Shown here: piece by piece, positions 8,220 to 63,109 of the stretch | Layout of the letters: every line of letters starts with the position of its first letter | How positions within the stretch are numbered: position 1 is the stretch's first letter | Assembly (NCBI GenBank): GCA_965214485.1 | Contig: CBDCBW010000009.1 | Span: 82,414-146,413 of the forward strand | Origin: Rhodothermales bacterium | GTDB taxonomy: Bacteria; Bacteroidota; Rhodothermia; Rhodothermales; JANQRZ01 | Direction of reading: 5' to 3' | Length of the DNA stretch: 64,000 nt | The notes under the pieces: generated by a model | What the model was told of the DNA's origin: nothing | The model's database searches: none | The model's input: only the letters and a program-made list of their open reading frames with translations | Made by a program: the position numbers and the translations under genes

Positions 8220-10625
8220 ATGCTCCGCAGCTATCTCCGCATCGCCCTCCGCACCCTCCGCCGCCGCCCCGGCTACACCGCCCTCAACGTGCTTGGGCTC
8301 GCCGTCGGCTTCGCGTGCTGCCTGCTCATCGGGCTCTACGTCGAGGACGAGCTGAGCTACGACCGCTTCCACGCCGACGCCGAGGCGCTCGTGGCGGTCG
8401 GGCACCGGAGTCCGTTCTGGGGGGCGGGTCTGAACACGCCGTATCCGCTCGCCGAGACGCTCGCGGGCGTGCCCGGCGTGGAGCACACCGTCCGCATGGG
8501 CTTCGCCGCGCCGCGTCCCGTCACCGTGGAGCCGGGCCGGGAGCGGCACGAGCTGCGCGTGCTCCAGACCGACGCCGCCTTCTTCGAGGCCTTCACGTTC
8601 CCGCTCGCCCGCGGCGACGCCGCCGAGGTCCTCGCCGCGCCGGACGGAGCCGTGCTCACGGCCTCGGCGGCCCGCACGCTCTTCGGCGACGCCGACCCCG
8701 TGGGGCAGCGCCTCCTCGTCGAGCGCTACGACGAGCCGACCCCCGTGACCGTCACCGGCGTCGCCGCCGACGTGCCCACCGCCTCGACGATCCAGTTCGA
8801 CCTTGCGATCTCGCTGGAGACCGTCCCGGAGCACTTCCGGGGCGACGAGAACTGGGGCAACTTCTCGTACCAGACCTACGCCCGCCTCCGCGCGCCGGCG
8901 GACACGACCACGTTCAACCCCCGGCTCCGCCAGGCCCTCGCGGCGGCCCTCCCCGAGGGCCGCGAGGCCGGCGGCTTCTTCGCCGTCCCGCTCCCGTCGC
9001 TCTACCTCTCCGAGCTGCACGGTGCCGACGGCTTCCGGGGGCAGACGCGCTACCTGTACCTCTTCGGCTCGGTCGCGCTGTTCATCCTGCTCATCGCCGC
9101 GATCAACTACGTCAACCTGGTCACGGCGCTCGGGGCGCAGCGGGCGAAGGAGGTCGGCGTGCGGAGGACGCTGGGGGCGACGCGCGGCGCGGTGGCGCGG
9201 CAGCACTGGGGCGAGAGCGCACTCGTGAGCCTCCTCGCGCTCGGGCTCGCGTTCGTGCTCGCGGCGCTCGCGGTGCCCGCCTTCAACGGCCTGTTCGACA
9301 CGGCGCTCGCGCTCGATGTGGGCGCGCACGGGGCGGCCGTGCTCGCGCTCTCGGGGTTCGTCTTCGGGGTCGGCGTCCTGGCCGGGACGTACCCGGCGGT
9401 CGTGCTCTCGCGCTTCCGTCCGGTCGAGGTGCTGCGCGGGCGGGGCGAGCGCGGGCCGGGCGCGGCGCGGCTGCGGCGGGGCCTGGTGGTCGTGCAGTTC
9501 GCACTCACGGTCGCGCTCCTGGTCGCCACCGCGGCGGTCCACCGGCAGCTCGGGTACATGCAGGCGAAGGACCTCGGCTTCGACGGCGAGCAGGTCGTGG
9601 TGGTGGACCTCCCGGCGCGCCAGGCTGCACGCCTCGCCGAGCCGGTGCGGGAGGCGGCCCTGGCCCACCCCGCCGTCCTCGACGCCTCCGTCGCCGACGC
9701 CGTGCCGGGGCGCTTCCGGGTGCACCTCGGGCTCAAGCCGGAGGAGTTCTCGCCGGAGGCCGCGTCGCGAGAGGACCTCGTGCAGGTCGCCCCCGCCAAA
9801 GTCGACGCCGCGTTCGTCCCGACCCTCGGGCTGCGCCTCCTCGCCGGCCGCTCGTTCGACGCCGAGCGCGCCGGGGACCGGCAGCGCGCGCACGTGCTCA
9901 CGCGCACAGCGGCCGAGGCGTTCGGGTGGAGCCCGGCCGAGGCCGTCGGGCGGCCGTTCCGGGTCAGCGGCGGCGACACGCCGTTCGGCGAGGTGATCGG
10001 GGTCGTCGAGGACTTCCACATCGGCTCGCTCCACCACGCCCTCGAGCCCGTCGTCCTGGTGATGGAGAGCGAGGGGTTCTCGTCGAGCAGCGGCTTGGTC
10101 GCGGCCCGCCTCGCGCCGGAGGACGTGCGGGCGGGCGTGGCGCACCTCGAAGCCGTCGCGGCGCGGTTCGCGCCGGGCGAGCCGTTCGCGTACGAGTTCC
10201 TCGACGACGCCTTCGACGCGATGTACCGGAGCGAGGAGCGGCTGGCGCGGGTCTTCGGCCTGTTCGCCGGGCTCGCCATCTTCGTCGCGTGCCTCGGGCT
10301 CTTCGGCCTCGCCGCGTTCACGGCCGAGCGGCGGACGAAGGAGATCGGCATCCGCAAGGTGCTCGGGGCCGGGGTCGGCCACCTCGTCCTGCTCCTCTCG
10401 AAGGAGTTCGCCGCGCTCGTCGCCGTCGCGCTCGTCGTGGCCGGGCCGCTGGCCTACCTCGCCGTGGCCCGGTGGCTCGAGGACTTCGCCTACCGCGCCG
10501 AGATCGGGCCGGGCGTGTTCCTCTTTGCCGGCGGCCTCGCGCTCGCCCTCGCGCTCGTGACGGTGAGCTACCACGCCGTGCGCGCCGCCACCGCCGACCC
10601 GGTCCAGGCCCTGCGCTACGAGTAG
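8220..10625 (+). CDS. MacB/FtsX-type ABC transporter permease (801 aa)
   Basis: Start at ATG 8220 ([30 protein letters not shown]). KEVGVRRTLGA / KEIGIRKVLGA motifs, C-terminal ADPVQALRYE*. Confidence 0.9.
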   Translation: MLRSYLRIALRTLRRRPGYTALNVLGLAVGFACCLLIGLYVEDELSYDRFHADAEALVAVGHRSPFWGAGLNTPYPLAETLAGVPGVEHTVRMGFAAPRPVTVEPGRERHELRVLQTDAAFFEAFTFPLARGDAAEVLAAPDGAVLTASAARTLFGDADPVGQRLLVERYDEPTPVTVTGVAADVPTASTIQFDLAISLETVPEHFRGDENWGNFSYQTYARLRAPADTTTFNPRLRQALAAALPEGREAGGFFAVPLPSLYLSELHGADGFRGQTRYLYLFGSVALFILLIAAINYVNLVTALGAQRAKEVGVRRTLGATRGAVARQHWGESALVSLLALGLAFVLAALAVPAFNGLFDTALALDVGAHGAAVLALSGFVFGVGVLAGTYPAVVLSRFRPVEVLRGRGERGPGAARLRRGLVVVQFALTVALLVATAAVHRQLGYMQAKDLGFDGEQVVVVDLPARQAARLAEPVREAALAHPAVLDASVADAVPGRFRVHLGLKPEEFSPEAASREDLVQVAPAKVDAAFVPTLGLRLLAGRSFDAERAGDRQRAHVLTRTAAEAFGWSPAEAVGRPFRVSGGDTPFGEVIGVVEDFHIGSLHHALEPVVLVMESEGFSSSSGLVAARLAPEDVRAGVAHLEAVAARFAPGEPFAYEFLDDAFDAMYRSEERLARVFGLFAGLAIFVACLGLFGLAAFTAERRTKEIGIRKVLGAGVGHLVLLLSKEFAALVAVALVVAGPLAYLAVARWLEDFAYRAEIGPGVFLFAGGLALALALVTVSYHAVRAATADPVQALRYE

Positions 10626-13226: not shown

Positions 13227-13280
13227 GGCGGGAAGGCGGTTGGGCGGGGTGCCCCGGGGATACGCCCCCCTCGCGGCAGG

Positions 13281-13399
13281 GTTTACAAACGGAGGAACGG
13301 AAGAGCGGAGAACGGAAGGTTTCAGGAGTCCCCGCCGAGCCTATCTTTCTTGCTTCCGCTCGCCCCCGCTTCTGCCCGTCCCCGCTTCCGCTCCTGAAC
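13281..13399 (+). repeat. Intergenic purine-arm / CCCGCTTCCGCT-box hairpin element abutting a start codon
   Basis: Purine-rich arm 13291-13319 (contains cggaagagcgg). Pyrimidine-rich arm 13345-13395 (contains cccgcttccgct at 13381-13392), followed directly by ATG 13400. Homologous to 54586-54694. Confidence 0.6.
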
Positions 13400-13693
13400 A
13401 TGGCCTATTCCAACACGCCGCAGCCGCTCGGGGCCGTGCTCCGCGAGCTGATCGACAAGGCGGGCTACCGCGAGCGGATCGACGCGGTGCGGGCCGTCGA
13501 GGCGTGGGCGGCGCTCGCCGGGCCGCAGATCAACGGGGTGACCGAGCGAGCGTGGGTGAAGGACGGCGTCCTGTTCATCAAGGTCCGCTCGGCACCGTGG
13601 CGGCACCAGCTCCACCTCCAGCGCCGCCCGTGGCAGGACCGCCTCAACGCCGAGCTCGGCACCACCGTCATCCGCGAGATCGTGTTCCGCTGA
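13400..13693 (+). CDS. DUF721 (DciA-like) domain protein, 97 aa
   Basis: Size and sequence style match the family: ...LGAVLRELIDKAGYRERIDAVRAVEAWAALAGPQI...GVLFIKVRSAPWRHQLHLQR... Confidence 0.7.
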   Translation: MAYSNTPQPLGAVLRELIDKAGYRERIDAVRAVEAWAALAGPQINGVTERAWVKDGVLFIKVRSAPWRHQLHLQRRPWQDRLNAELGTTVIREIVFR

Positions 13694-31520: not shown

Positions 31521-31659
31521 GAGCAGCGTGCGATAACGTGTGGGGCGGGAGCGGAAGGGGTGCGGCGCGCGGAGGATAAGAGCGTGAAACAGGGAAGTCA
31601 AGCCCCTCAGGGCGCATTCTCCGTGAGCCTCCCGCTTACATGTGCATGCATCACGAGAA

Positions 31660-42668: not shown

Positions 42669-42865
42669 GGGCGCGGGGTGAAAGCCGAAAGCTACGGCGC
42701 AAGCAGACCGGGAGTGCAGGCACCCGAGTCCCCTCGCACCTAGTGCGTTGACAGGTTGCCCGTGCGCGGACCCCCTGTCCGTCGGCTGCTCGGAGCGCAG
42801 CGAGGGCAGCGGAAGCGGGGGGTCGCCTGCGAGCAAGCCGTCATGACGGTAAACCCAAGACGCTC

Positions 42866-42932
42866 GCGCGGTGCCCGTTCGCGCGGTGGCCGTTCGCGCG
42901 GTGGCCGTTCGCGCGGTGGCCGTTCGCGCGGG
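42866..42932. repeat. 15-bp tandem repeat gcgcggtgSccgttc, about 4.5 copies
   Basis: Copies at 42866, 42881, 42896 and 42911, plus a partial copy at 42926. Intergenic, between divergent spoIID-like and batA-like genes. Confidence 0.9.
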
Positions 42933-43024: not shown

Positions 43025-45139
43025 ATGGCCTTTCTCAACCCGCTCGTCCTGCTCGGCCTCGCGGCGGCGGCGATCCCGATCCTGATCCACCTCTTCAACT
43101 TCCGCAAGCCGAAGCGGGTGGACTTCTCGTCGCTGGCGTTCCTGCACGAGCTGCAGAAGAGCACGATGCGGCGCGTCCGCATCCAGCAGTGGCTCCTGCT
43201 CGCGCTGCGCACGCTGGCGCTCGCCTGCCTCGTCCTGGCCTTCGCCCGGCCCACGGTGCAGAGCGGCTGGGCGACGGTCTTCGGCGGGCAGCCCACCTCC
43301 ACGGCGCTGGTCGTGGACCATTCGCTCTCGATGACGGTCCGCGACGCGCAGGGCGACCTGATGATGCAGGCGCAGGAGCTGGCCTCGGCGGTCGTCGAGG
43401 CGAGCAAGGCGGGGGACGAGGTGTTCGTCGTCGGGACGGCCGCGGGGCGGGCCGAGGCGTTCCGCAACCCCGGCCCCGCGCTCGACGCGGTGGCGGAGCT
43501 GGAGCCGGAGGCCGGGGCGAGCACCACCGGCAGCGCGGTCGGGCGGGCGTTCGCCCTGCTCGACGGGGCGGACAACCTGAACCGCGAGGTCCTCGTCCTC
43601 TCCGACCTCCAGGCCTCGACGTTCCTCGACTCGGCGCGCGTGCCCGCGCCGCCCGGGGTCCGGGTCACGCTGCTCCCCGTCGGCGAGCGGCGGCACTCGA
43701 ACGTGGCGGTGACCGACGCCCGCGTCGTCAGCCGGATCGTCGAGGCCGGGCAGCCGGCGCAGATCGAGGCCACGCTCGTCGCCTACGGGGAGGAGCCGCT
43801 CGACGGCTACACGGCGAGCCTCTACCTCGGCGGCGAGCGCGTCGCGCAGGCCACGGCCGACCTCGCCCCACGCGTCCCGGCGACGGTCACGTTCACCGCC
43901 ACGCCGCAGGCCCGCGGCTGGCTCCCCGGCGAGGTCCGCACCGAGGCCGACGCCTTCGAGTGGGACAACACGCGCCACCTTGTCCTCCACGTCCCCGAGA
44001 CGCGGCGCGTGCTCGTCGTCCGCGGCGAGGGGCAGCGGGCCGACCTCGTGGACCTCGCCCTGGGCCTGGGCGGCTCGTCCCGCTTCGCCGTGACGACGGT
44101 GCCCGAGACGGCGCTCGCCGCGCAGGCGCTCGGCGGCTTCGACGTGGTCGTGCTCGTCGGGCCGGAGAGCCTCGCGAGCGGCGAGCGGGCGGCGCTCGCG
44201 CGGTTCGTGCAGGCCGGCGGCGGCCTGGTGGTCTTCCCGAGCGAGCGGGCGGGCGCGCCGGACTATGACGCCCTCTTCGCCGCGCTCGGCGGCGGGCGGC
44301 TCGGCGAGGCGGTGGGGCGGCTCGGCGGGGCGCAGCCGGTCGCGCAGTTCGGGCGGGTTGATCTGGAGCACCCGCTCTTCGAAGGGGTCTTCGCCTCCGG
44401 ATCGGCGTCCGGCGCGGGCTCCTCCGGCCCGGCGCAGCTCGAAAGCCCCGCCATCGCCTTCGCCCGCCCGTACCGGCCCGGCGTGGGGGACGAGAACACG
44501 CTGATCGCCCTGTCGAGCGGCGGGCCGTTCCTGCAGGAGGTGCGGAGCGGGCAGGGCACGGCGTTCGTCTTCGCCGTCGCGCCGGACCCGCGCTGGAGCG
44601 ATTTCCCCGTGCGCGGCCTGTTCGTCCCGCTCCTCTACCGCGCCGTGTACTACCTCGCCGCCGACGCGGACACGGGCGAGGCCCTGACGGTCCGGCAGCC
44701 CGCGCCGCTGCGGGTCTCGGGCGGCACCGAAGGGCTGCGCCTCGAAGGGCCGGACGGGACCGAGCTCGTGCCCGAGCAGCGGAGCGTCCCCGGCGGCGTC
44801 CTCCTCGAGATCGACGACACGGTGCGCGAGCCCGGGGTCTACGACGTGATGCAAGGCGAGCGGCTCGTCCGCCGCGTGGCCTTCAACCCCGACGCGCGCG
44901 AGTCCGACCTCGCCACGCTCGCCCCCGAGGAGGCGCGCCGCCGCCTCGCCGCGGCGACGGGGGCCGAGGTCCGGCTCCTCGACGCCACCGCCGGGCAGGG
45001 CCTCGCCGCTGCCGAGCGGATCGCCGAGGGGCGGACGGGGGTCGAGCTCTGGAACGTGTTCCTGTTTCTGGCGCTGCTGTTCCTCCTGGCCGAGATGCTC
45101 GTCGCGATGCAGTGGAAGCCCGAGCCGGTGGCGGCGTAG
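43025..45139 (+). CDS. BatA-N (double-TM N-terminal) domain protein, 704 aa
   Basis: MAFLNPLVLLGLAAAAIPILIHLFNFRKPKRVDFSSLAFL...WLLLALRTLALACLVLAFARP is the aerotolerance-regulator N-terminal signature. C-terminal TM present. Confidence 0.8.
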   Translation: MAFLNPLVLLGLAAAAIPILIHLFNFRKPKRVDFSSLAFLHELQKSTMRRVRIQQWLLLALRTLALACLVLAFARPTVQSGWATVFGGQPTSTALVVDHSLSMTVRDAQGDLMMQAQELASAVVEASKAGDEVFVVGTAAGRAEAFRNPGPALDAVAELEPEAGASTTGSAVGRAFALLDGADNLNREVLVLSDLQASTFLDSARVPAPPGVRVTLLPVGERRHSNVAVTDARVVSRIVEAGQPAQIEATLVAYGEEPLDGYTASLYLGGERVAQATADLAPRVPATVTFTATPQARGWLPGEVRTEADAFEWDNTRHLVLHVPETRRVLVVRGEGQRADLVDLALGLGGSSRFAVTTVPETALAAQALGGFDVVVLVGPESLASGERAALARFVQAGGGLVVFPSERAGAPDYDALFAALGGGRLGEAVGRLGGAQPVAQFGRVDLEHPLFEGVFASGSASGAGSSGPAQLESPAIAFARPYRPGVGDENTLIALSSGGPFLQEVRSGQGTAFVFAVAPDPRWSDFPVRGLFVPLLYRAVYYLAADADTGEALTVRQPAPLRVSGGTEGLRLEGPDGTELVPEQRSVPGGVLLEIDDTVREPGVYDVMQGERLVRRVAFNPDARESDLATLAPEEARRRLAAATGAEVRLLDATAGQGLAAAERIAEGRTGVELWNVFLFLALLFLLAEMLVAMQWKPEPVAA

Positions 45140-45348
45140 GGGCCGACCCGCGTGGCCGCCCTCCCGAGGTGCAGCACCATTCTGAAACCGGGCGAACACG
45201 CGGGTGCGCCCCTACGTCCGTTTTGCAGGCCCCGGCACGGTTCTGGAAGCGGTGCCTGTAAAGAAACCGCCACGCCTGCAACCGGCATACGCGCCGCACA
45301 TACAACCTCCGCCGCTGCCCGGCGTATCCTGTCCCCGAACCCAGCCCC

Positions 45349-47723: not shown

Positions 47724-47757
47724 GTAGGGGCTTGACTGGTCAAGCCCCTACGTTTTT
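47724..47757 (+). terminator. Rho-independent terminator
   Basis: gtaggggcttgac-tg-gtcaagcccctac is a perfect 13-bp inverted repeat followed by gttttt, 24 nt after the CBS gene stop. Confidence 0.85.
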
Positions 47758-53383: not shown

Positions 53384-53400
53384 CCCGCTCCCGTAGCTTC

Positions 53401-53498
53401 GACACCCGACCCTCGACACCCGACCCTCGACACCCGACCCTCGACACCCGACCCTCGACACCCGACCCTCGACACCCGACCCTCGACACCCGACTCAC
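53401..53498. repeat. 14-bp tandem repeat gacacccgaccctc, 6 perfect copies plus 1 degenerate
   Basis: Copies start at 53401, 53415, 53429, 53443, 53457 and 53471, with a degenerate copy at 53485. The array ends 5 nt before the pfk ATG. Confidence 0.95.
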
Positions 53499-53502
53499 CC
53501 CT

Positions 53503-54585
53503 ATGCCTGATTCGCTCCGCGTCGGCGTCCTCACCGGCGGCGGCGACTGCCCCGGCCTCAACGCCGTCCTCCGCGCCGTCACCAAGAGCCTCGTCCTGCG
53601 CGACGGGGCCGAGGTCATCGGCTTCGAGGACGGCTTCGAGGGCCTCGTCGAGCGCCGCGCCCGGACGCTCTCGTACCGCGACGTGTCGGGCCTGCTCACC
53701 GTCGGCGGCACCATCCTCGGCACCTCGAACAAGGCCAACCCCTTCGACTACTTCGGGCGCGGCGGAGCAGACGTGTCGGGCGAGATTCTGGATTACGTCC
53801 GCGAGATCGAACTCGACGCGCTCGTCGCCATCGGCGGCGACGGGACGATGTCGATCTGCCACGGCTTGCAGGAGCGCGGGCTCAACGTCGTCGGCGTCCC
53901 GAAGACGATCGACAACGACCTCGTCGGGACCGACCGGACGTTCGGGTTCGACACCGCCGTCGCGATCGCCACCGAGGCCCTCGACCGGCTCCACTCGACC
54001 GCCCAGAGCCACCACCGCGTGATGGTCCTCGAGACGATGGGCCGCTACGCCGGATGGATCGCGCTCTACGCCGGCATCGCCAGCGGCTCCGACGTGGTCC
54101 TGCTCCCCGAGTTCGAATACGACGTGGACGAGGTGGCGCGCGTCTGCCGCCGGCGCGAGCGCGGCGGGCAGCGCTTCACGATCATCGCGATGGCCGAGGG
54201 TGCCAGGCCCATCGGCGGCGAGCTCGCCGTCCTGAAACTCGTCGAGGACAGCCCGGACCCGGTCCGGCTCGGCGGCGCGTGCCACGTCCTCGGGCGCGCG
54301 CTCGAACACCGCCTCGACAGCGAAATCCGCACGACGATCCTCGGTCACGTCCAGCGCGGCGGCACACCGACCGCCTACGACCGCATCCTCTCGACCGCCT
54401 TCGGCGAGGCCGCCGCCCGCTGCGTCGCCGAGCGGACCTTCGGCGTGATGGTCGCGCTGCAAGACGGCCACCCAGTGACGGTCCCGCTCGCCGAGGTGGC
54501 CCACAAGGTGCGGACCGTGCCGGAGGACCACCCGATGGTCCGCGCCGCCCTCGCCGTCGGGACCTCCTTCGGCGTGCCGATGTAG
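53503..54585 (+). CDS. pfkA: 6-phosphofructokinase
   Basis: GVLTGGGDCPGLNAV, IGGDGTMS, PKTIDNDL, ETMGRYAGWIAL, GHVQRGG. Confidence 0.93.
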   Translation: MPDSLRVGVLTGGGDCPGLNAVLRAVTKSLVLRDGAEVIGFEDGFEGLVERRARTLSYRDVSGLLTVGGTILGTSNKANPFDYFGRGGADVSGEILDYVREIELDALVAIGGDGTMSICHGLQERGLNVVGVPKTIDNDLVGTDRTFGFDTAVAIATEALDRLHSTAQSHHRVMVLETMGRYAGWIALYAGIASGSDVVLLPEFEYDVDEVARVCRRRERGGQRFTIIAMAEGARPIGGELAVLKLVEDSPDPVRLGGACHVLGRALEHRLDSEIRTTILGHVQRGGTPTAYDRILSTAFGEAAARCVAERTFGVMVALQDGHPVTVPLAEVAHKVRTVPEDHPMVRAALAVGTSFGVPM

Positions 54586-54694
54586 GAGCGGAAGAACTTT
54601 TAGGAGCGGAAGAGCGAAAGGGTCTGAGACTCAACGCCAAGCCATTCGTCCCCGCTTCCGCTCGTTCCCGCTTCCGTTCGTCCGCTCCTGACCC
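54586..54694 (+). repeat. Intergenic purine-arm / CCCGCTTCCGCT-box hairpin element abutting a start codon
   Basis: ggagcggaagaac (54586-98) pairs with gttcgtccgctcc (54677-89). gagcggaagagcg (54604-16) pairs with cccgcttccgctc (54651-63). ATG at 54695. Confidence 0.65.
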
Positions 54695-55744
54695 ATGCAC
54701 GTCTTCCTCACCGGAGCCACCGGCTACGTCGGCTCCTACGTCCTGCGCGCCCTCCTCGACCGGGGCCACACCGTCCGCTGCCTCGTCCGCGAAGGATCGC
54801 TCGGCAAGCTCGACATCGACCCGGGCCGGATCGCCGAGGTAGACTCGTCGCAGGAGTCGGTCATGAAGGACATCGAGCGCGGCGACGAGGCCGGGGCCGC
54901 CCGGTCGAGCCGCCCGGTCGAGGTCGTCTACGGCGACGTGACCGACCTCTCGACCGTGCAGGGCGACATGCGCGGGTGCGATGCGGTCGTCCACCTCGTC
55001 GGGATCATCGAGGAGGTCAAGCCGAAGGGCGTCACCTTCGAGCGCCTCCACGTCAAGGGCACGCGGACGATTGTGGAGGAGGCGAAGGCGGCGGGCATCA
55101 CGCGGTTCGTCCACATGAGCGCCAACGGCGCGTCGCCGGACGCCGACTCGGCCTACCAGACGACGAAGTGGCGCGCCGAGGAGATCGTCCGCGACGCCGG
55201 GTTTGCGAGCTACGTCATCTTCCGCCCGTCGATCCTCTTCGGCGACCCCGAGCCGGGGCCGGCTCGGCACGGGCGCGAGGAGTTTGCCGGCCGCCTCGCC
55301 GAGAGCCTCATCCGCCGGTTCCCCGTCCTCCCGATCCTCGGCGACGGGCAGTACCGGCTCCAGCCCGTCCACGTCACCGCCGTCGCCGACGCCTTCGTGC
55401 AGGCGCTCGACCGCGAGCCGCCGAGCGACGCCAAGGCCTACCTCCGGCAGGACGCCTACTGCGTCGCCGGGCACGATGTGGTGACGTTCGACGAGGCCGT
55501 GGACCGGATCACGCGCGCGCTCGGGCAGGACCCCAAGCCGAAGCTCCACCAGCCGCTGTGGCTCTCGAAGTTCGTCGTCGGCACCGCCGGCGAGGTCGGG
55601 CTGCTGCCGATCTCGCCGGCGCAGTTCAAGATGCTCATCGCGGGCAACACCTGCGACGCGGCGCGCTTCTGGGCCGACTTCGACGTGAGGCCGGTCCCGT
55701 TCACGCCGGAGCACCTCGCCTACGTCCGAGAGGCGGAGAGCTGA
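54695..55744 (+). CDS. NAD(P)-binding epimerase/dehydratase-fold protein (NDUFA9/NmrA-like)
   Basis: MHVFLTGATGYVGSYVLRALL Rossmann motif, YQTTKW (YxxxK), 349 aa. Confidence 0.8.
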   Translation: MHVFLTGATGYVGSYVLRALLDRGHTVRCLVREGSLGKLDIDPGRIAEVDSSQESVMKDIERGDEAGAARSSRPVEVVYGDVTDLSTVQGDMRGCDAVVHLVGIIEEVKPKGVTFERLHVKGTRTIVEEAKAAGITRFVHMSANGASPDADSAYQTTKWRAEEIVRDAGFASYVIFRPSILFGDPEPGPARHGREEFAGRLAESLIRRFPVLPILGDGQYRLQPVHVTAVADAFVQALDREPPSDAKAYLRQDAYCVAGHDVVTFDEAVDRITRALGQDPKPKLHQPLWLSKFVVGTAGEVGLLPISPAQFKMLIAGNTCDAARFWADFDVRPVPFTPEHLAYVREAES

Positions 55745-55843: not shown

Positions 55844-56395
55844 ATGCGCTACGCCCTGTCCCTCGCCCTGCTTCTTCCCCTGACCGCCGCCTGCGGCCCC
55901 GGCACCGAGGAGCCCCCGGAGTCCGTTCAGGAGACGCCGATGGAGGCTGCCGTCGTGCCCGACGACGTCGTCGGGACGTACCGGCTCGTGGGGGTCAACG
56001 GGGAGCCGCTTCCCCGCGGCGTCGGCTCCGTGGACGAGTGCGAGGTGCAGCTCTCGCGCGGCACGATCCTGCTCGGAGCCGACGCACGGTACACGCTCGA
56101 CGTCCTCGCCCGCGCCGTGTGCGATGCCGACGAGGAGGCGCAAAGACTCGACCGTTCCACGAGCGAGGGGCCGTTCACCGTCGAGGGCTTCGACATCCGC
56201 TTCAACTCCGCCGTCACCGAGGTCGTCGAGGACGAGGAAAGCGAGATGGGCGAGGACGAACTCCTGGAGGACGAAGAGATGGAAGAACCCGACCTCTTCG
56301 ACGCGTCCCTCTTCGCCGGCACCGGCACGCTCCGCGACAGCACCCTCACGATCCTCGTCGACGAGCTGACGACGTTCACGTTCGCCCGCGAGTGA
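55844..56395 (+). CDS. Lipoprotein with acidic C-terminal region, function unknown
   Basis: From ATG 55844: MRYALSLALLLPLTAAC lipobox. Also contains EVVEDEESEMGEDELLEDEEMEE. Confidence 0.6.
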   Translation: MRYALSLALLLPLTAACGPGTEEPPESVQETPMEAAVVPDDVVGTYRLVGVNGEPLPRGVGSVDECEVQLSRGTILLGADARYTLDVLARAVCDADEEAQRLDRSTSEGPFTVEGFDIRFNSAVTEVVEDEESEMGEDELLEDEEMEEPDLFDASLFAGTGTLRDSTLTILVDELTTFTFARE

Positions 56396-56503
56396 GGACA
56401 GAGAAGAGATAGACAAGAGAGAAGACAGAAAAGAAAGCGCAACTTCACTAACTCCTCTCTCTTCTCCCTCTCCTCTTTCTCTTCCCTCTCTTCTCTTTAC
56501 CTA
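56396..56503 (+). other. Polypurine arm / polypyrimidine arm long imperfect hairpin (possible terminator or leader structure)
   Basis: 56396-56438 is almost exclusively A/G. 56452-56498 is exclusively C/T. A 13-nt spacer separates them, and the ATG of the next gene is at 56504. Confidence 0.6.
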
Positions 56504-57187
56504 ATGGAGGACCTTCTCACCGAAACCGCCGCCGACACGGCCCGCCTCGGCAAGAAGTACGTCGCCATCGCGGGCAACATCGGGGCGGGCAAGAGCTCGC
56601 TCACGCGCATCCTCTCTGATTATTTCAAGTGGGAGGCGTTCTACGAGCGCGTCGACGGCAACCCGTACCTCGCGGACTTCTACGACGACATGCGGCGGTG
56701 GAGCTTCAACCTCCAGGTCTACTTTCTCTCGAGCCGCTTCGCGGGGCAGCAGCAACTCGAACACGCCCCGCACTCGGTCGTCCAGGACCGCTCGATCTAC
56801 GAGGACGTCGAGATCTTCGCGCGCAACCTCTACGAGATGGGGCTGATGGACGGGCGCGACTTCGAGAACTACCAGGACCTCTTCGCGCTGATGACGGGCT
56901 ACCTCCGCCCGCCGGACCTGCTGGTCTACCTCCGCGCGAGCGTCCCCACCCTCGTCCGCCAAATCCAGAGCCGGGGCCGCGACTTCGAGGCCGGCATCCG
57001 GATCGACTACCTGGAGCGGCTCAACGTCCACTACGAGACCTGGGTCGAGCGCTACGACCTCGGCCCGAAGCTGATCGTCGAGACCGACGAGCTCGACTTC
57101 GTCAACACCGACGAGGACCGGTTCGAGATTCTGAGCCGCGTCGAGAGCCGGCTCTACGGGCTGTTCCCGGAGATGGTGGGGGGCTGA
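56504..57187 (+). CDS. Deoxynucleoside kinase
   Basis: IAGNIGAGKSSL P-loop, FYDDMRRWSFNLQVYFL, DRSIYEDVEIFA. Confidence 0.9.
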   Translation: MEDLLTETAADTARLGKKYVAIAGNIGAGKSSLTRILSDYFKWEAFYERVDGNPYLADFYDDMRRWSFNLQVYFLSSRFAGQQQLEHAPHSVVQDRSIYEDVEIFARNLYEMGLMDGRDFENYQDLFALMTGYLRPPDLLVYLRASVPTLVRQIQSRGRDFEAGIRIDYLERLNVHYETWVERYDLGPKLIVETDELDFVNTDEDRFEILSRVESRLYGLFPEMVGG

Positions 57188-57195
57188 AAAACGGA

Positions 57196-59250
57196 ATGGG
57201 GGGAATGGAAAGAATGGAGGGTGTGGGGGGAGGATTCGCCCTCCTCGCCCTCCTCGCCCTCCTCGCCCTTCCTGCGCAGGCGCAACGCCCCGACTCGCTC
57301 GCGCTGCCAGTGGACTCGCTCGCTGCACCGGTGGACACCCTTGATGTGACGGTGGACTCCGGCGCGGCGGACTCGGCGGCGGTGCGGCGGCCGCCCCGCC
57401 CCGCCGTGTCCTTCGCGCCTGCCGAGCCGGGCCGCGTCGTGAGCGGCGTGCCGACGCGGCGGCCTGTCTTCAACGTGGCGGAGCTTTTGGCCGAGGGGCC
57501 GGGCGCGTTCCGCTACGACCTCGGCGTCCCGGCGGCGGCGGACGGCCTTTCGTTCGGCGGCCTCGCCCCGCGCCGCACGGCGCTGAGACTCGACGGCGTC
57601 CCTGGCGGGGACCTGCTCTCCGGTCGCCCGGCGTTCGAGCTGCTCCCGCTCGACGTGCTCGCCCCGCTCCGGCTCGGCGCGGACGGGACCGAGCCGGCAG
57701 CGGTGGCGGCGAGCCTGCGCGCCTTCGGGGCGGCAGTGCCGGTGACGGAGCTGCGCTACCGGACGGGCGGCGGCGGCATTCAGTTCATCTCGGCGACCCA
57801 CGCGCAGACGCGGCGGCCCGGCTTCGTGCGTGCCCTCGGCGGCGACCGGGCGCGGCTGCAGGCGCTCTTCCACGTCAGCGGGCGCGAGGCCGACGGCGAG
57901 TACGCCGGGGTCGGGGTGAACGGGTGGCAGGTGATCGGGCGCGTCGGCCTCGCGCTGCCCTGGCTCTCGCTAGAGGTCACCGAGCGCCACGGGCGCGACC
58001 GCGCCGGAGCTTCGGGCGGCGTCCGGCCCGGCGGCCCGGACTTCAACACGGTCTTCGACCGCGACGGGGCGACCGTCCTCACCCCGAACGCGCGGCGCGA
58101 GACGATCCGCAACGACCTCTCGGCTACCCTCCGCCTCCCGCTTCTCCGCTCGCCGCTCACGGCGACGGGCTTCTGGACCGCCGAGACGTTTCGGTACTTC
58201 GACTCGGGCGCATTCACCGCCGCCGACACGGTGGGCGCTCGGGCGGACCGGCTCGGTCTGCGGCTCGTGCAGCCCGTCCGGTGGGGGGCGCACCGGCTCC
58301 GCGCCGTCGCCGAGGGCTGGGTGACGCAGACGAGGCGCGGCACCGCGTTTCCCGACGACGACCGCGCCCAAACCCTCCACTTCGCCCTCTCGGACTCACT
58401 CGCTCTCGCCGGCTTCGACCTCGACACCGAGGCCGGGTTCACCGTAGCGCCGGGGTCTTCCTTCCCCGTACTCGGGTTCCGCGTCGAGCGGGCCTTCGGT
58501 CCGGCGCGGACGTTCGTGTCCACCCGGATCGCCGGAGCGACCCACAGCCGGGTCGAGCGCGACGGGTTCGGGACGCTGGCCCGGTCGGCGGGAGCGGCGG
58601 GCGACGAGCGGACGCTCGTGCTCGCGGCAGGCTTCGACGCCGAGGCTGGGCCGTTCGACCTCGCGCTCTCGGGCGAGGCCGTGCGGCAGACCGATCCCCG
58701 CGCGCTCCTCGCCGACGCGGACACGGCGGCGACGTTCGTGACCGCGCGCGGGACGTTCCGCCGCGTGACGGGCACCGCCCGCCTCGGCTGGCGCGACCGC
58801 GCAGCGCGCGGCCTCTACGCCCGGCTTCGGGCCGACGCCTCGGCGTTCCTCAACTCCGGCGACTCCCCCGTTCACGCCCGCGAAGCCGAGGCCCTCCCGC
58901 CGGTCTGGGGCGAGGCCCGCCTCGGCGTCCGCGCCCTGGGCCTCTTCGGCGGCAACCTCGACCTCGACCTCGCCGCACGCGGGCGCGGGTGGGCGGCGTT
59001 CCGAGGCCGCAGCTTCCACGCGCCCACCGCGCTCTTCGCCCTCCCGCCGCTCGACGCGCGCCCCGTCGATCCCTCCGGCACGCTCGACCTCATCGCTGAG
59101 GCCGCGATCGGCGGGGGGCGGGCGACGGTGTTCATCGCCTACGAAAACATTCTCGCGAGCCGGGCCTATTCCGGGGCCTACGTCGTGCCGGTTTACCCGC
59201 TCCCGAACCCGCGCCTCCGCTTCGGCGTGTTCTGGCTCCTCCCGAACTAG
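57196..59250 (+). CDS. Outer-membrane beta-barrel protein (putative porin family)
   Basis: Signal FALLALLALLALPAQAQ and a beta-rich sequence ending ...RLRFGVFWLLPN*. Start ambiguous (ATG at 57196, 57205 or 57214). Confidence 0.6.
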   Translation: MGGMERMEGVGGGFALLALLALLALPAQAQRPDSLALPVDSLAAPVDTLDVTVDSGAADSAAVRRPPRPAVSFAPAEPGRVVSGVPTRRPVFNVAELLAEGPGAFRYDLGVPAAADGLSFGGLAPRRTALRLDGVPGGDLLSGRPAFELLPLDVLAPLRLGADGTEPAAVAASLRAFGAAVPVTELRYRTGGGGIQFISATHAQTRRPGFVRALGGDRARLQALFHVSGREADGEYAGVGVNGWQVIGRVGLALPWLSLEVTERHGRDRAGASGGVRPGGPDFNTVFDRDGATVLTPNARRETIRNDLSATLRLPLLRSPLTATGFWTAETFRYFDSGAFTAADTVGARADRLGLRLVQPVRWGAHRLRAVAEGWVTQTRRGTAFPDDDRAQTLHFALSDSLALAGFDLDTEAGFTVAPGSSFPVLGFRVERAFGPARTFVSTRIAGATHSRVERDGFGTLARSAGAAGDERTLVLAAGFDAEAGPFDLALSGEAVRQTDPRALLADADTAATFVTARGTFRRVTGTARLGWRDRAARGLYARLRADASAFLNSGDSPVHAREAEALPPVWGEARLGVRALGLFGGNLDLDLAARGRGWAAFRGRSFHAPTALFALPPLDARPVDPSGTLDLIAEAAIGGGRATVFIAYENILASRAYSGAYVVPVYPLPNPRLRFGVFWLLPN

Positions 59251-61285: not shown

Positions 61286-61366
61286 ACGTCGGAGAGGGTG
61301 AAAGGAGAAAAGGAGGAAAAGGGAGAAGGGGCGTCTCTCTTTCCCCCTTCTCCCCTTCCCCAGCTC
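61286..61366 (-). other. sdhA-sdhB intercistronic polypurine/polypyrimidine hairpin
   Basis: On the coding strand, ggggaaggggagaagggggaaagagaga - cgcc - ccttctcccttttcctccttttctcctttcaccctctcc, followed by the ATG of sdhB. Confidence 0.6.
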
Positions 61367-63109
61367 TCAATACTTCCGCTCCTTCGGCTGGAAGCGGGTG
61401 ATGGTGACGCTCTTGTAGTCGAAGCGGGCCTCGCCGTCCTGGGACCAGTAGAGGGTGTGCTTGAGCCAGTTCTCGTCGTCGCGGTCGGGGTAGTCTTCGC
61501 GGAGGTGCGCGCCGCGGCTCTCGGGCCGGTGGGCGGCCCCGGCGGCGATGGCCTCGGCGTAGTCCACCATGAAGCCGATCTCGACGGCGTCCATGAGGTC
61601 GGTGTTGAACTTCGTCCCCTTGTCGCCGACGACGACGCGTCCGGCGCGGGCGCGGAGCTGCCCTAGATCGGCGAGGGCGGTTGAGAGGGTCTCGTCGTTG
61701 CGGAAGACGGAGACGTTCGTCATCATCGTCTCCTGGAGGTCGGTGCGGATCGAGACGGCCTTCTCGCCCTCGGTGCGCGCGCGGATGGTTTCGAGGAGGT
61801 CGCGGGTGCGGGCCTCGGCGGCGTCCGGGAGCGTGCGCCGCTGGGTCCCGTCGCGCTCGATCTCGCCCGCCATCGCGATGCCGGCGCGGCGGCCGAAGAC
61901 GACGAGGTCGAGGAGGGAGTTGGTCCCTAAGCGGTTGGCGCCGTGGACGCTGACGCAGGCGCACTCGCCGATGGCGTAGAAGCCCGGCACCACGTCGTCC
62001 TCGCGGCTCGGCCCGGCGACGACCTGCCCGTCGACGTTCGTCGGGATGCCGCCCATCGCGTAGTGGCACGTCGGCGCGACCGGGATCGGCGTCTTGACCG
62101 GGTCGATGCCGAGGTAGACGCGGCTGAACTCGGTGATCTCGGGGAGCTTGTGCTCCAGGACGTCGGTCCCGACGTGGGTCATGTCGAGCACGACGTGGTC
62201 TTTGCCGTTGATGCCGCGGCCTTCGCGGATTTCCTTGTAGATGCACTGCGAGACCATGTCGCGCGGGGCGAGGTCCTTGACGGTCGGCGCGTAGCGCTCC
62301 ATGAAGCGCTCGCCCTCGGAGTTGCGGAGGATGCCGCCCTCGCCGCGCGCGCCCTCGGTGATCAGGATGCCGAGGCGGTAGAGGCCGGTCGGGTGGAACT
62401 GGACGAACTCCATGTCCTCGAGCGGGAAGCCGTTGCGGAGGGCGATCGCCATCCCGTCGCCGGTGCCGGCGTGGGCGTTCGAGGTCGTCTTGAAGGCGCG
62501 GCCGTAGCCGCCCGTTGCGAAGCAGGTGATCTTCGCGTGGAAGGTGTGGACCTCGCCCGTGAGGATCTCATAGGCCACGATCCCGACGACGGCCCCGTCC
62601 TCGTCCTTGACGAGGTCGAGCATCTGGAACTCGTCGTAGAACTTGACCTCTTTCTGGGTGCACTGGTCGTAGAGCGTGTGGAGGATCGTGTGGCCCGTGC
62701 GGTCGGCGGCGTGGCAGGCGCGGCGGACGGCGGCCTCGCCGAAGTTGCGCGTGTGCCCACCGAAGCGTCGCTGCGAGATCAGGCCCTCCTGGTTGCGGCT
62801 GAACGGCACGCCGTAGTGCTCGAGCTCGATGATGGTCCGCGGCGCGTCGCGGCACATCTGCTCGATGGCGTCCTGGTCGCCGAGGTAGTCCGAGCCCTTG
62901 ACGGTGTCGAAGGTGTGCCAGAGCCAGCTGTCCTCCTCCTCGTTCCCGAGCGCCGCGCCGATGCCGCCCTGCGCCGCGCCGGTGTGGCTGCGGAGCGGGT
63001 GGAGCTTCGAGACGACGGCCACGTCGGCCCCGCCTTCGCGGGCGTAGAGCGCCGCCATCAGGCCCGCGCCGCCCGCGCCAACGATTACGATGTCGTGCGT
63101 AAAAGTCAT
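61367..63109 (-). CDS. sdhA: Succinate dehydrogenase flavoprotein subunit
   Basis: [27 protein letters not shown] (FAD-attachment His context), [21 protein letters not shown]. Confidence 0.96.

Follow-up and report, generated by a model that had tools for sequence, protein, structure and literature searches.

The spacer upstream of dciA raises the question of whether the purine-rich and pyrimidine-rich boxes within it belong to a dispersed repeat, to a regulatory element, or to the ordinary leader of the gene. To address this, we analyzed the 64,000-nt stretch of Rhodothermales DNA in which the spacer lies (the window), together with related loci. The window is 71% G+C and encodes T9SS sorting domains and BatA; homologues of two of its proteins are annotated as Rhodothermales or Rubricoccaceae. 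Sequence comparison places the element before dciA (copy A) as a member of a lineage-restricted, dispersed repeat family in Rhodothermales (Rubricoccaceae-like).

Two copies of a two-armed element in the window

Copy A sits within the 173-nt divergent spacer between a GSDH-like gene and dciA (Table 1). All of the sequences quoted in the original prediction lie where it placed them, with seven bases separating the 12-mer from the dciA ATG. The pyrimidine arm is tandemly organized, with a period of 16 and 2.5 copies at 13352-13391 according to TRF, and the purine arm is bracketed by two back-to-back -33-like boxes. The candidate promoter of the GSDH-like gene was placed from its sequence and from the -7 box pattern of the clade. 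The dciA orthologues are 97 aa long with an identical start. A family HMM, with copy A as a member of its training set, matches 13286-13387 (E 1e-25).

Table 1. Positions of copy A, copy B and associated features. Coordinates are those of the window unless a relative's locus is named.
Feature	Position	Strand	Remark
Copy A	13291-13399	+	spacer upstream of dciA
Copy A purine arm (arm 1), GGAGGAACGGAAGAGCGGAGAACGGAAGG	13291-13319	+	contains family motif CGGAAGAGCGGA
cggaagagcgg	13298-13308	+	upstream (purine) arm of copy A
Putative -33-like TTTC	13320-13323	+	18 nt upstream of the -7-like box
-7-like box TATCTTTC	13342-13349	+	58 nt before dciA ATG
Copy A pyrimidine arm (arm 2)	13349-13399	+	putative dciA 5' leader, CCGCTCC just before ATG
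16-nt units of arm 2 (n=3)	13349-13364, 13365-13380, 13381-13396	+
cccgcttctgcc	13365-13376	+	downstream (pyrimidine) arm of copy A
12-mer CCCGCTTCCGCT	13381-13392	+	followed by cctgaac and ATG 13400
TGA	13395-13397		in copy A
dciA (DUF721/DciA)	13400-13693	+	Pfam PF05258, E 6e-21
GSDH-like gene	ATG 13226	-	divergent from dciA
Putative GSDH-like promoter	13256-13289	-	TTTG 13289-13286 and GTATCCCC 13263-13256
Copy B	54583-54694	+	occupies entire PFK-to-epimerase spacer
Copy B arm 1	54585-54622	+	two GGAGCGGAAGA units, at 54585 and 54603
Copy B arm 2	54647-54690	+	16-nt units
Copy B 12-mer	54651-54662	+	1-mismatch copy at 54667
PFK stop codon	54583-54585	+	flanks copy B
NDUFA9-like epimerase ATG	54695	+	flanks copy B
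Solitary exact 12-mer	42808-42819	-	SpoIID/BatA divergent spacer
CTTCCGCTCC-containing stretch	31549-31561	-	pyrimidine-rich leader, cytochrome c peroxidase gene (ATG 31520)
dNK/next-gene junction, window	57186-57275
dNK/next-gene junction, L002	13008-13100
dNK/next-gene junction, L247	8442-8555
dNK/next-gene junction, L248	12673-12804
dNK/next-gene junction, L249	12445-12564

Both boxes recur, as predicted, in copy B, where the purine unit is found twice and the 12-mer once. Its pyrimidine arm also has a 16-nt tandem period (54646-54683, TRF). The two copies are 77% identical over about 100 nt and have in common the 17-mer CGTCCCCGCTTCCGCTC (13377-13393 in A, 54647-54663 in B), CGGAAGAGCG in the upstream arm, and GCTCCTGA just before the ATG.

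The original prediction counted three exact 12-mers as far above chance. The excess is real, as CCCGCTTCCGCT is present three times in the window (13381 and 54651 on the plus strand, 42808 on the minus strand) against 0.07 expected, and none of 100 shuffles reaches three. They are not three independent events, however, because A and B are homologous; the sole independent occurrence is that at 42808, with p ~0.07. This minus-strand 12-mer, found where it had been reported, lies 140 nt before the SpoIID ATG (42668) and upstream of a SpoIID -7-like box. It has no purine arm, the family HMM gives no match there, and it may be a remnant. Adjoining it in the same spacer is a 15-nt x 4.5 tandem array of TCGCGCGGTGGCCGT (98% matches, 42864-42931).

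The near copy proposed at 31547-31560 on the minus strand did not hold up. Only a match with two mismatches is found there, at 31550-31561(-), and matches of that quality are at chance level in the window (26 seen, 22.2 expected). The HMM is silent at 31549-31561(-), and we rejected this stretch as a family copy in favor of a generic leader motif.

A dispersed family in related genomes

We compared the window with the syntenic loci of relatives, of which L002 has 84% protein identity. Six further copies were found in the relatives, at non-orthologous genes, giving eight in all from at least four related genomes. The shared module, ~100 nt long (~100-115), joins a purine arm, (GGAAGAGCGGA)n, to a pyrimidine arm, (CCCGCTTCCGYYCGTY)n, of 16-nt units through ~30 nt of spacer. 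Copies are found at dciA, the NDUFA9-like epimerase, dNK, ugd/manC, a ComEA-like protein, and an outer-membrane protein; the sequence covered here has roughly one copy per 30-40 kb. In L002 the PFK-epimerase spacer retains the orthologous element (L002a, 9902-10000), with CGGAAGAGCGGA twice followed by TATCTTCCGCTCTC, and a second L002 copy (L002b) precedes dNK. A scan with the two-arm pattern also caught two contigs of another Rhodothermales MAG (L010 and L045).

The family HMM was built from five copies. Outside the training set it matches L248 12677-12777 (E 3e-17) and L045 3787-3877 (E 3e-12), with weaker matches in L249, L002b, and L242. For the L248 copy the minus strand gives much the better score, although both flanking genes are on the plus strand, and its reverse complement, CCCGCTTCCGCCCGTCCCCGCTTCCGTTCGTCC, approximates the pyrimidine arm of copy B. 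The element thus has two distinguishable arms and can lie in either orientation. This contradicts the claim that the box is always in the sense orientation of the downstream gene. Moreover, since a purine-then-pyrimidine inverted repeat has the same order on both strands, sense orientation is automatic for two-arm copies; copy B carries CTTCCGCT twice on its minus strand.

Pairwise identity among the copies is 62-81%, so that either any spread is old or the similarity has been maintained by selection or gene conversion. The orthologous pair B/L002a, at 62%, is less alike than cross-species pairs at non-orthologous genes (76-81%). Non-orthologous copies include identities of 17-18 nt, and the similarity extends to the spacer, with CCCGaCCGnCGCC in L010 and L248. 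The family likeness could in part be convergence on a favored leader motif, CCGCTC.

Presence or absence of the element differs between orthologous sites. Before the epimerase gene, it is found only in the window and L002; a different, conserved block occupies the site in L001, L246, L247, L248, and L249. In these five relatives GATCC-N15-CGCGCGTAYA lies ~50 nt before the epimerase ATG (9925-9950 in L001) and may be the ancestral promoter or operator. Among the dciA orthologues compared, the full element is present only in the window; the others keep the leader and have no purine arm. There is no clean empty site, because orthologous sites lacking the element also differ in a neighboring gene or promoter block.

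Two family copies, at L045 2797-2904(-) and L248 12677-12777, overlap annotated N-terminal coding sequence, giving purine-rich extensions (MEERMMGRAEG... or MKGDERKRGRAEAG...) that precede a signal peptide. Either the starts were mis-called or the element is translated.

In wider searches, the matches listed from outside Rhodothermales were nearly all at chance level. The pattern GGAAGAGCG-N25-50-CTTCCGCTC returned at least 118 stretches from a genome collection, spread over all phyla as expected by chance, and only 3 of the 83 matches listed came from Rhodothermales. A metagenome scan with the 18-mer CGTCCCCGCTTCCGCTCS gave at least ~120 matches; those listed look like chance, are mostly in coding sequence, and have no purine arm. 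No Rfam 15 family reached its gathering threshold anywhere in the window, and with relaxed settings A and B gave only sub-threshold miRNA-hairpin noise. In the literature we found no relevant promoter or repeat family described for Rhodothermus or Salinibacter.

The pyrimidine arm as a probable promoter border and leader

To place the pyrimidine arm among the leaders of the clade, we used 86 genes with spacers of at least 60 nt from nine Rhodothermales loci (L001, L002, L242, L244-L249), a set that includes orthologues and is not fully independent. Pyrimidines make up 69% of positions -30 to -1 (C 47, T 22, G 19, A 12) compared to 49% at -150 to -100; genes with spacers under 20 nt have 50%. 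The top leader hexamer is CCGCTC, with 35 sense and 13 antisense occurrences and 27 no more than 50 nt from the ATG. All four dciA orthologues retain CCGCTCC 5-18 nt before the ATG. At the nine loci an SD-like GGAGG is mostly absent from leaders. Published studies of Bacteroidetes describe a lack of SD sequences and selection that keeps start sites weakly structured (PMC6847099, PMC5397173, PMC3155529).

Upstream of the 86 genes, a TAnCTT box is encoded 28 times in sense and 9 times in antisense orientation, with a peak 30-50 nt before the ATG. T is weakly enriched 22-24 nt upstream of the TA of the -7-like box in 28 clade promoters. The sigma-A promoter of Bacteroidota consists of a -33 TTTG and a -7 TAnnTTTG. 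Judged by sequence, TAnCTTyC is the local clade form of this -7 element. Copy A has a sense-oriented box of the clade type, TATCTTTC, upstream of dciA, and a similar box is found 32-49 nt before the ATG in the dciA orthologues. L002a and L002b have TATCTTCC at the equivalent position; no recognizable -7 box is present in the B and L010 spacers. Given the pyrimidine-rich leaders of the clade and the -7 box preceding the arm, the pyrimidine arm of copy A is most likely the dciA 5'UTR. The box is at the border of spacer and pyrimidine arm, which would put the start of the dciA mRNA near 13355.

The PFK gene in the window has an expanded leader of its own. A perfect 14-nt x 6.9 array (TCGACACCCGACCC, 53399-53494) lies between a -7-like box, TAGCTTCG, and the ATG at 53504; it makes up nearly the whole PFK leader (53394-53503), which thus expanded independently of the element. 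In the L002 orthologue a closely related -7-like box, TAGCTTTC, lies ~40 nt before the ATG and the leader is much shorter, suggesting the window array is a very recent expansion.

The purine arm and predicted hairpins

We assessed arm complementarity against arm-wise shuffles that kept the composition of each arm, as any purine tract pairs well with a pyrimidine tract (shuffled arms alone still give about -23 to -53 kcal/mol). Pairing is above this null in B (z -4.0, 0/300 shuffles), L002a, L010, L045rc, the sdhA-sdhB spacer, and one L242 spacer. It is at null level in copy A (duplex z -0.7) and L045b. Whole-region folds gave z values of -2.35 for B, -3.19 for L002a, and -2.91 for sdhA-sdhB, compared to +0.44 for copy A, no better than shuffles. 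Folding the RNA, proposed as a check on the element, therefore supports a predicted structure in copy B and not in copy A. Compensatory changes between copies did not appear, with zero compensatory pairs in the five-copy consensus structure. Nor does the sense strand have an energy advantage: antisense folds are often more stable, as the base composition of the arms explains, so nothing points to the sense RNA, rather than DNA symmetry, as the target of selection.

In the predicted stem of copy B, the PFK stop codon (54583-54585) pairs with 54681-54690, four nucleotides before the ATG at 54695. Predicted stems likewise start in or beside the upstream stop and end 4-10 nt before the ATG in L002a, 56393-56503, and the sdhA-sdhB spacer. 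When the folded RNA contains the purine arm, positions -20 to +6 are predicted to be unpaired with a probability of 0.20-0.47 instead of 0.59-0.94. A paired stop and a masked start, as expected of a translational-coupling stem, are found in silico for B, 56393-56503, and sdhA-sdhB; such a stem does not apply to copy A, as its upstream gene is divergent. The purine arm of copy A lies upstream of both divergent promoters and so is probably outside the dciA mRNA. Because its arms show no significant complementarity, the hairpin may be irrelevant to this copy. On these folding predictions the hairpin reading appears to fit copy B rather than copy A.

The purine-then-pyrimidine order is also seen in other spacers with unrelated sequences. 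Pairs of tracts in this order were found at no fewer than 11 loci in 232 kb, with the reverse order at one. At 56393-56503(+), the spacer upstream of dNK is taken up by a purine arm, AGAGAAGAG..., and a pyrimidine arm, CTCTTCTCT..., which together reach from the stop codon until 10 nt short of the ATG. L246 8400-8505 has the same architecture with homologous sequence; this pair forms a family distinct from the CGGAAG element, with arm pairing marginally above null. The sdhA-sdhB spacer (61286-61369, minus strand) forms one long hairpin (GGGGAAGGGGAGAAGGGGG / CCCTTCTCCC...), with a fold z of -2.9 and significant arm pairing, that begins at the sdhA stop codon and stops 6 nt short of the sdhB ATG.

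At the junction of dNK and the next gene, a purine tract is followed by a pyrimidine tract in every species, with unrelated sequences. The pyrimidine part encodes a signal peptide, in the window as (TCGCCCTCC)x3.8. In L248 the site is taken by the inverted CGGAAG-family copy, inside the annotated N-terminus. We rejected the (TCGCCCTCC)n repeat at 57236-57269 as a family copy, as it encodes the signal peptide and pairing at the junctions is mostly at null level.

A possible mode of action and its alternatives

Tentatively, and on sequence evidence, we favor reading copy A as a promoter plus pyrimidine-leader cassette drawn from an imperfect-palindrome family, with the copy B type being a conditional hairpin. 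Under this proposal the copy A module would work as a promoter-plus-leader cassette, with the dciA transcript beginning near the position given above. The 5'UTR would then be an almost purine-free arm that is unable to fold on itself and has been lengthened by the 16-nt tandem units. Such an open leader could be a landing site for ribosomes that initiate independently of an SD, probably via protein S1, as in most genes of the clade. The purine arm would be just upstream of the -33 box, between the divergent promoters, and probably absent from the dciA mRNA. Where the genes are co-directional, as at copy B, read-through RNA would carry both arms. These could form a stem that reaches from the upstream stop until a few bases short of the next ATG and hides the initiation region, and translation of the polycistronic RNA would then need either a terminating ribosome to open the stem (coupling) or RNase III-type processing.

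A wider version of this idea, which we consider unlikely, is that GC-rich, SD-less Rhodothermales use purine-then-pyrimidine palindromes running from stop to start as a two-state device. RNA from an internal promoter would have only the open C/U leader and be freely translated; read-through RNA would carry both arms and be translated only if an upstream ribosome or RNase III opened the stem. The CGGAAG/CTTCCGCTC element would be its mobile or homogenized version and CCGCTC a clade-specific initiation signal.

Alternatively, the element could be a cis-regulatory RNA hairpin of the 5'UTR or intercistronic region that is always transcribed and acts as an RNase III site, thermosensor, or binding structure for a protein; the start of transcription would then precede the purine arm in all copies, A among them. 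The long imperfect stems predicted for B, L002a, and sdhA-sdhB, the significant complementarity of the arms in most copies, and the occlusion of the start region in silico are consistent with this, as is the retention of the element at the L002 PFK-epimerase junction despite differing arm sequences. However, neither the fold nor the arm pairing of copy A exceeds the nulls, and a well-placed -7 box lies inside the "loop" of A, L002a, and L002b. Compensatory changes, a sense-strand energy advantage, and an Rfam match are all missing, and the dciA orthologues keep the leader with no purine arm, making a constitutive RNA hairpin improbable. In another reading, the GAGCGGAAG and CTTCCGCTC boxes could be an array of double-stranded transcription-factor sites, in inverted orientation upstream of the -33 box and downstream of the start, defining a dispersed regulon. 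The boxes recur regularly, every 15-18 nt along purine arms and every 16 nt along pyrimidine arms, the copy A purine arm is exactly between its two divergent -33-like boxes, and it is sequence rather than structure that is conserved. Yet the genes served are functionally unlinked (dciA, NDUFA9-like epimerase, dNK, ugd, ComEA-like, outer-membrane protein), and the element is missing at orthologous promoters in close relatives. A 16-nt period is ~1.5 helical turns, awkward for co-operative binding on the same face, and the same purine-then-pyrimidine architecture is found elsewhere with unrelated sequences. We judge an operator array to be a little less probable again than the RNA hairpin.

It could also be that the element is functionless in itself and arose as a by-product of leader composition, replication slippage, and template switching. 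Selection would keep the leaders rich in pyrimidines, slippage would enlarge them by tandem units, and template switching would generate the complementary purine tracts, the likeness being convergence on CCGCTC. Pyrimidine-rich leaders are clade-wide with CCGCTC as their commonest hexamer, tandem expansion of the PFK leader took place independently, the tracts at the dNK junction in five species have unrelated sequences with pairing mostly not above null, and the arms of copy A are at null level. Such convergence would have to produce the 17-18-nt identities and the 76-81% identity over ~100 nt, spacer included, between non-orthologous copies from different species. It would also have to account for HMM E-values of 1e-12 to 1e-17 outside the training set and highly significant arm complementarity in B, L002a, L010, and L045rc; we give this explanation about the same low weight as the constitutive hairpin. 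A classical REP element or an intrinsic terminator is the least probable, close to being discounted. The element is intergenic and palindromic, and copy B follows a stop codon, but it is a composite of ~100 nt that lies at 5' ends or operon junctions and was never seen between convergent genes. It has neither a conserved GTAG nor a T-run, and a separate hairpin family in the window, described below, fits a REP better.

If the cassette reading of copy A and the conditional hairpin of the copy B type are correct, they would provide an example of how an SD-less bacterium of 71% G+C builds its translation start regions. C/U-rich, purine-poor leaders would replace the A-rich ones that are unusable in such a GC-rich genome, and would be copied between genes as a cassette and enlarged by tandem duplication. 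The stop-to-start pairing of copy B and three other spacers would be a testable case of coupling or insulation of cistrons without an SD. Recognizing the family would also aid the placement of start codons and promoters in Rhodothermales metagenome assemblies, where two copies are inside annotated N-termini.

Comparison with known repeats and systems

REPs are GC-rich hairpins of 20-40 nt with a conserved GTAG head that are usually found 3' of genes, in hundreds of copies, and are mobilized by RAYTs. REPs and BIMEs resemble the element in being palindromic, extragenic, and able to occur inside operons. The likeness does not extend to size, motif, or position. We rejected the REP reading, as the element spans ~100-115 nt and combines two arms of tandem repeats with a ~30-nt spacer rather than forming a single 20-40-nt hairpin. 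In the seven-copy alignment the GTAG head is not conserved; only copy B has GTAG, overlapping the PFK stop codon. The description of the element as dispersed and REP-like or regulatory thus stands for a dispersed, partly palindromic intergenic repeat and fails on the definition of a REP, while a regulatory role is plausible from sequence position and folding predictions. An intrinsic terminator was also rejected, since neither A nor B has a T-run after its pyrimidine arm; canonical terminators with a GC stem and T-run are present upstream of the epimerase gene in L246 and L247.

A different repeat, GTAGGGGC, is found in inverted pairs in the window (7 compared to 1.8 expected), including 45136-45215 (45136/45208) and 47724-47751 (47724/47744). 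These pairs form REP-like hairpins after genes, and GTAGGGGC also flanks genes in L249. They look like better REP candidates than the CGGAAG element.

The closest analogues of the element are MITE, Correia, and ERIC-type repeats, intergenic palindromes that are able to provide promoters and RNase III-sensitive hairpins (PMC2649163, PMC3184786). MITEs and ERIC/IRU sequences are small, non-coding, dispersed imperfect palindromes that are often co-transcribed and found in both orientations (PMC3184786). The element resembles them as a dispersed imperfect palindrome that is intergenic and in both orientations: its eight copies are at non-orthologous genes, with that of L248 inverted. MITEs also have terminal inverted repeats with defined ends, target-site duplications, and a cognate transposase; none of these was seen for the element, so that its mobility is conjectural. 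Its arms pair significantly in B, L002a, L010, and L045rc and are at null level in A and L045b, its ends are not sharply defined, and no flanking direct repeats are evident at the copies examined.

Correia repeat-enclosed elements (CREE) of Neisseria are able to supply promoter boxes and, when co-transcribed, RNA hairpins that RNase III cuts or protects, with expression of the adjacent gene changed (PMC2649163; PMC5039591). CREE/NEMIS and the element are alike in being ~100-150-nt intergenic sequences, bounded by inverted repeats, that lie beside unrelated genes and vary between related genomes. As to promoter elements of the kind that Correia and ERIC repeats supply, A, L002a, and L002b have a suitably placed, clade-typical candidate -7 box, and B and L010 have none. 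However, the sequences are unrelated, the phylum is another one, and the copy number of the element looks much lower. It is also without an evident TA target duplication or IHF site, and its arms are purine/pyrimidine-asymmetric and internally tandem.

With the SD-less initiation regions of Bacteroidetes the element shares the absence of an SD and a pre-start region that is unpaired, which the pyrimidine arm would achieve (PMC6847099, PMC3155529, PMC5397173). Those described have A-rich leaders in AT-rich genomes, whereas here the genome is 71% G+C and the leaders are C/U-rich (C 47%, T 22%) with recurrent CCGCTC. The predicted stems of copy B and three other spacers, which include the upstream stop and mask the downstream start, would resemble hairpins that couple adjacent cistrons. 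Intercistronic hairpins of this kind, unfolded by the ribosome, are known from the MS2 coat/replicase and the E. coli atp operon. There is no SD to mask here, however, and the stems are long (~30-40 bp) and imperfect. Taken together, the element represents a small novelty confined to this lineage and does not amount to a new type of system.
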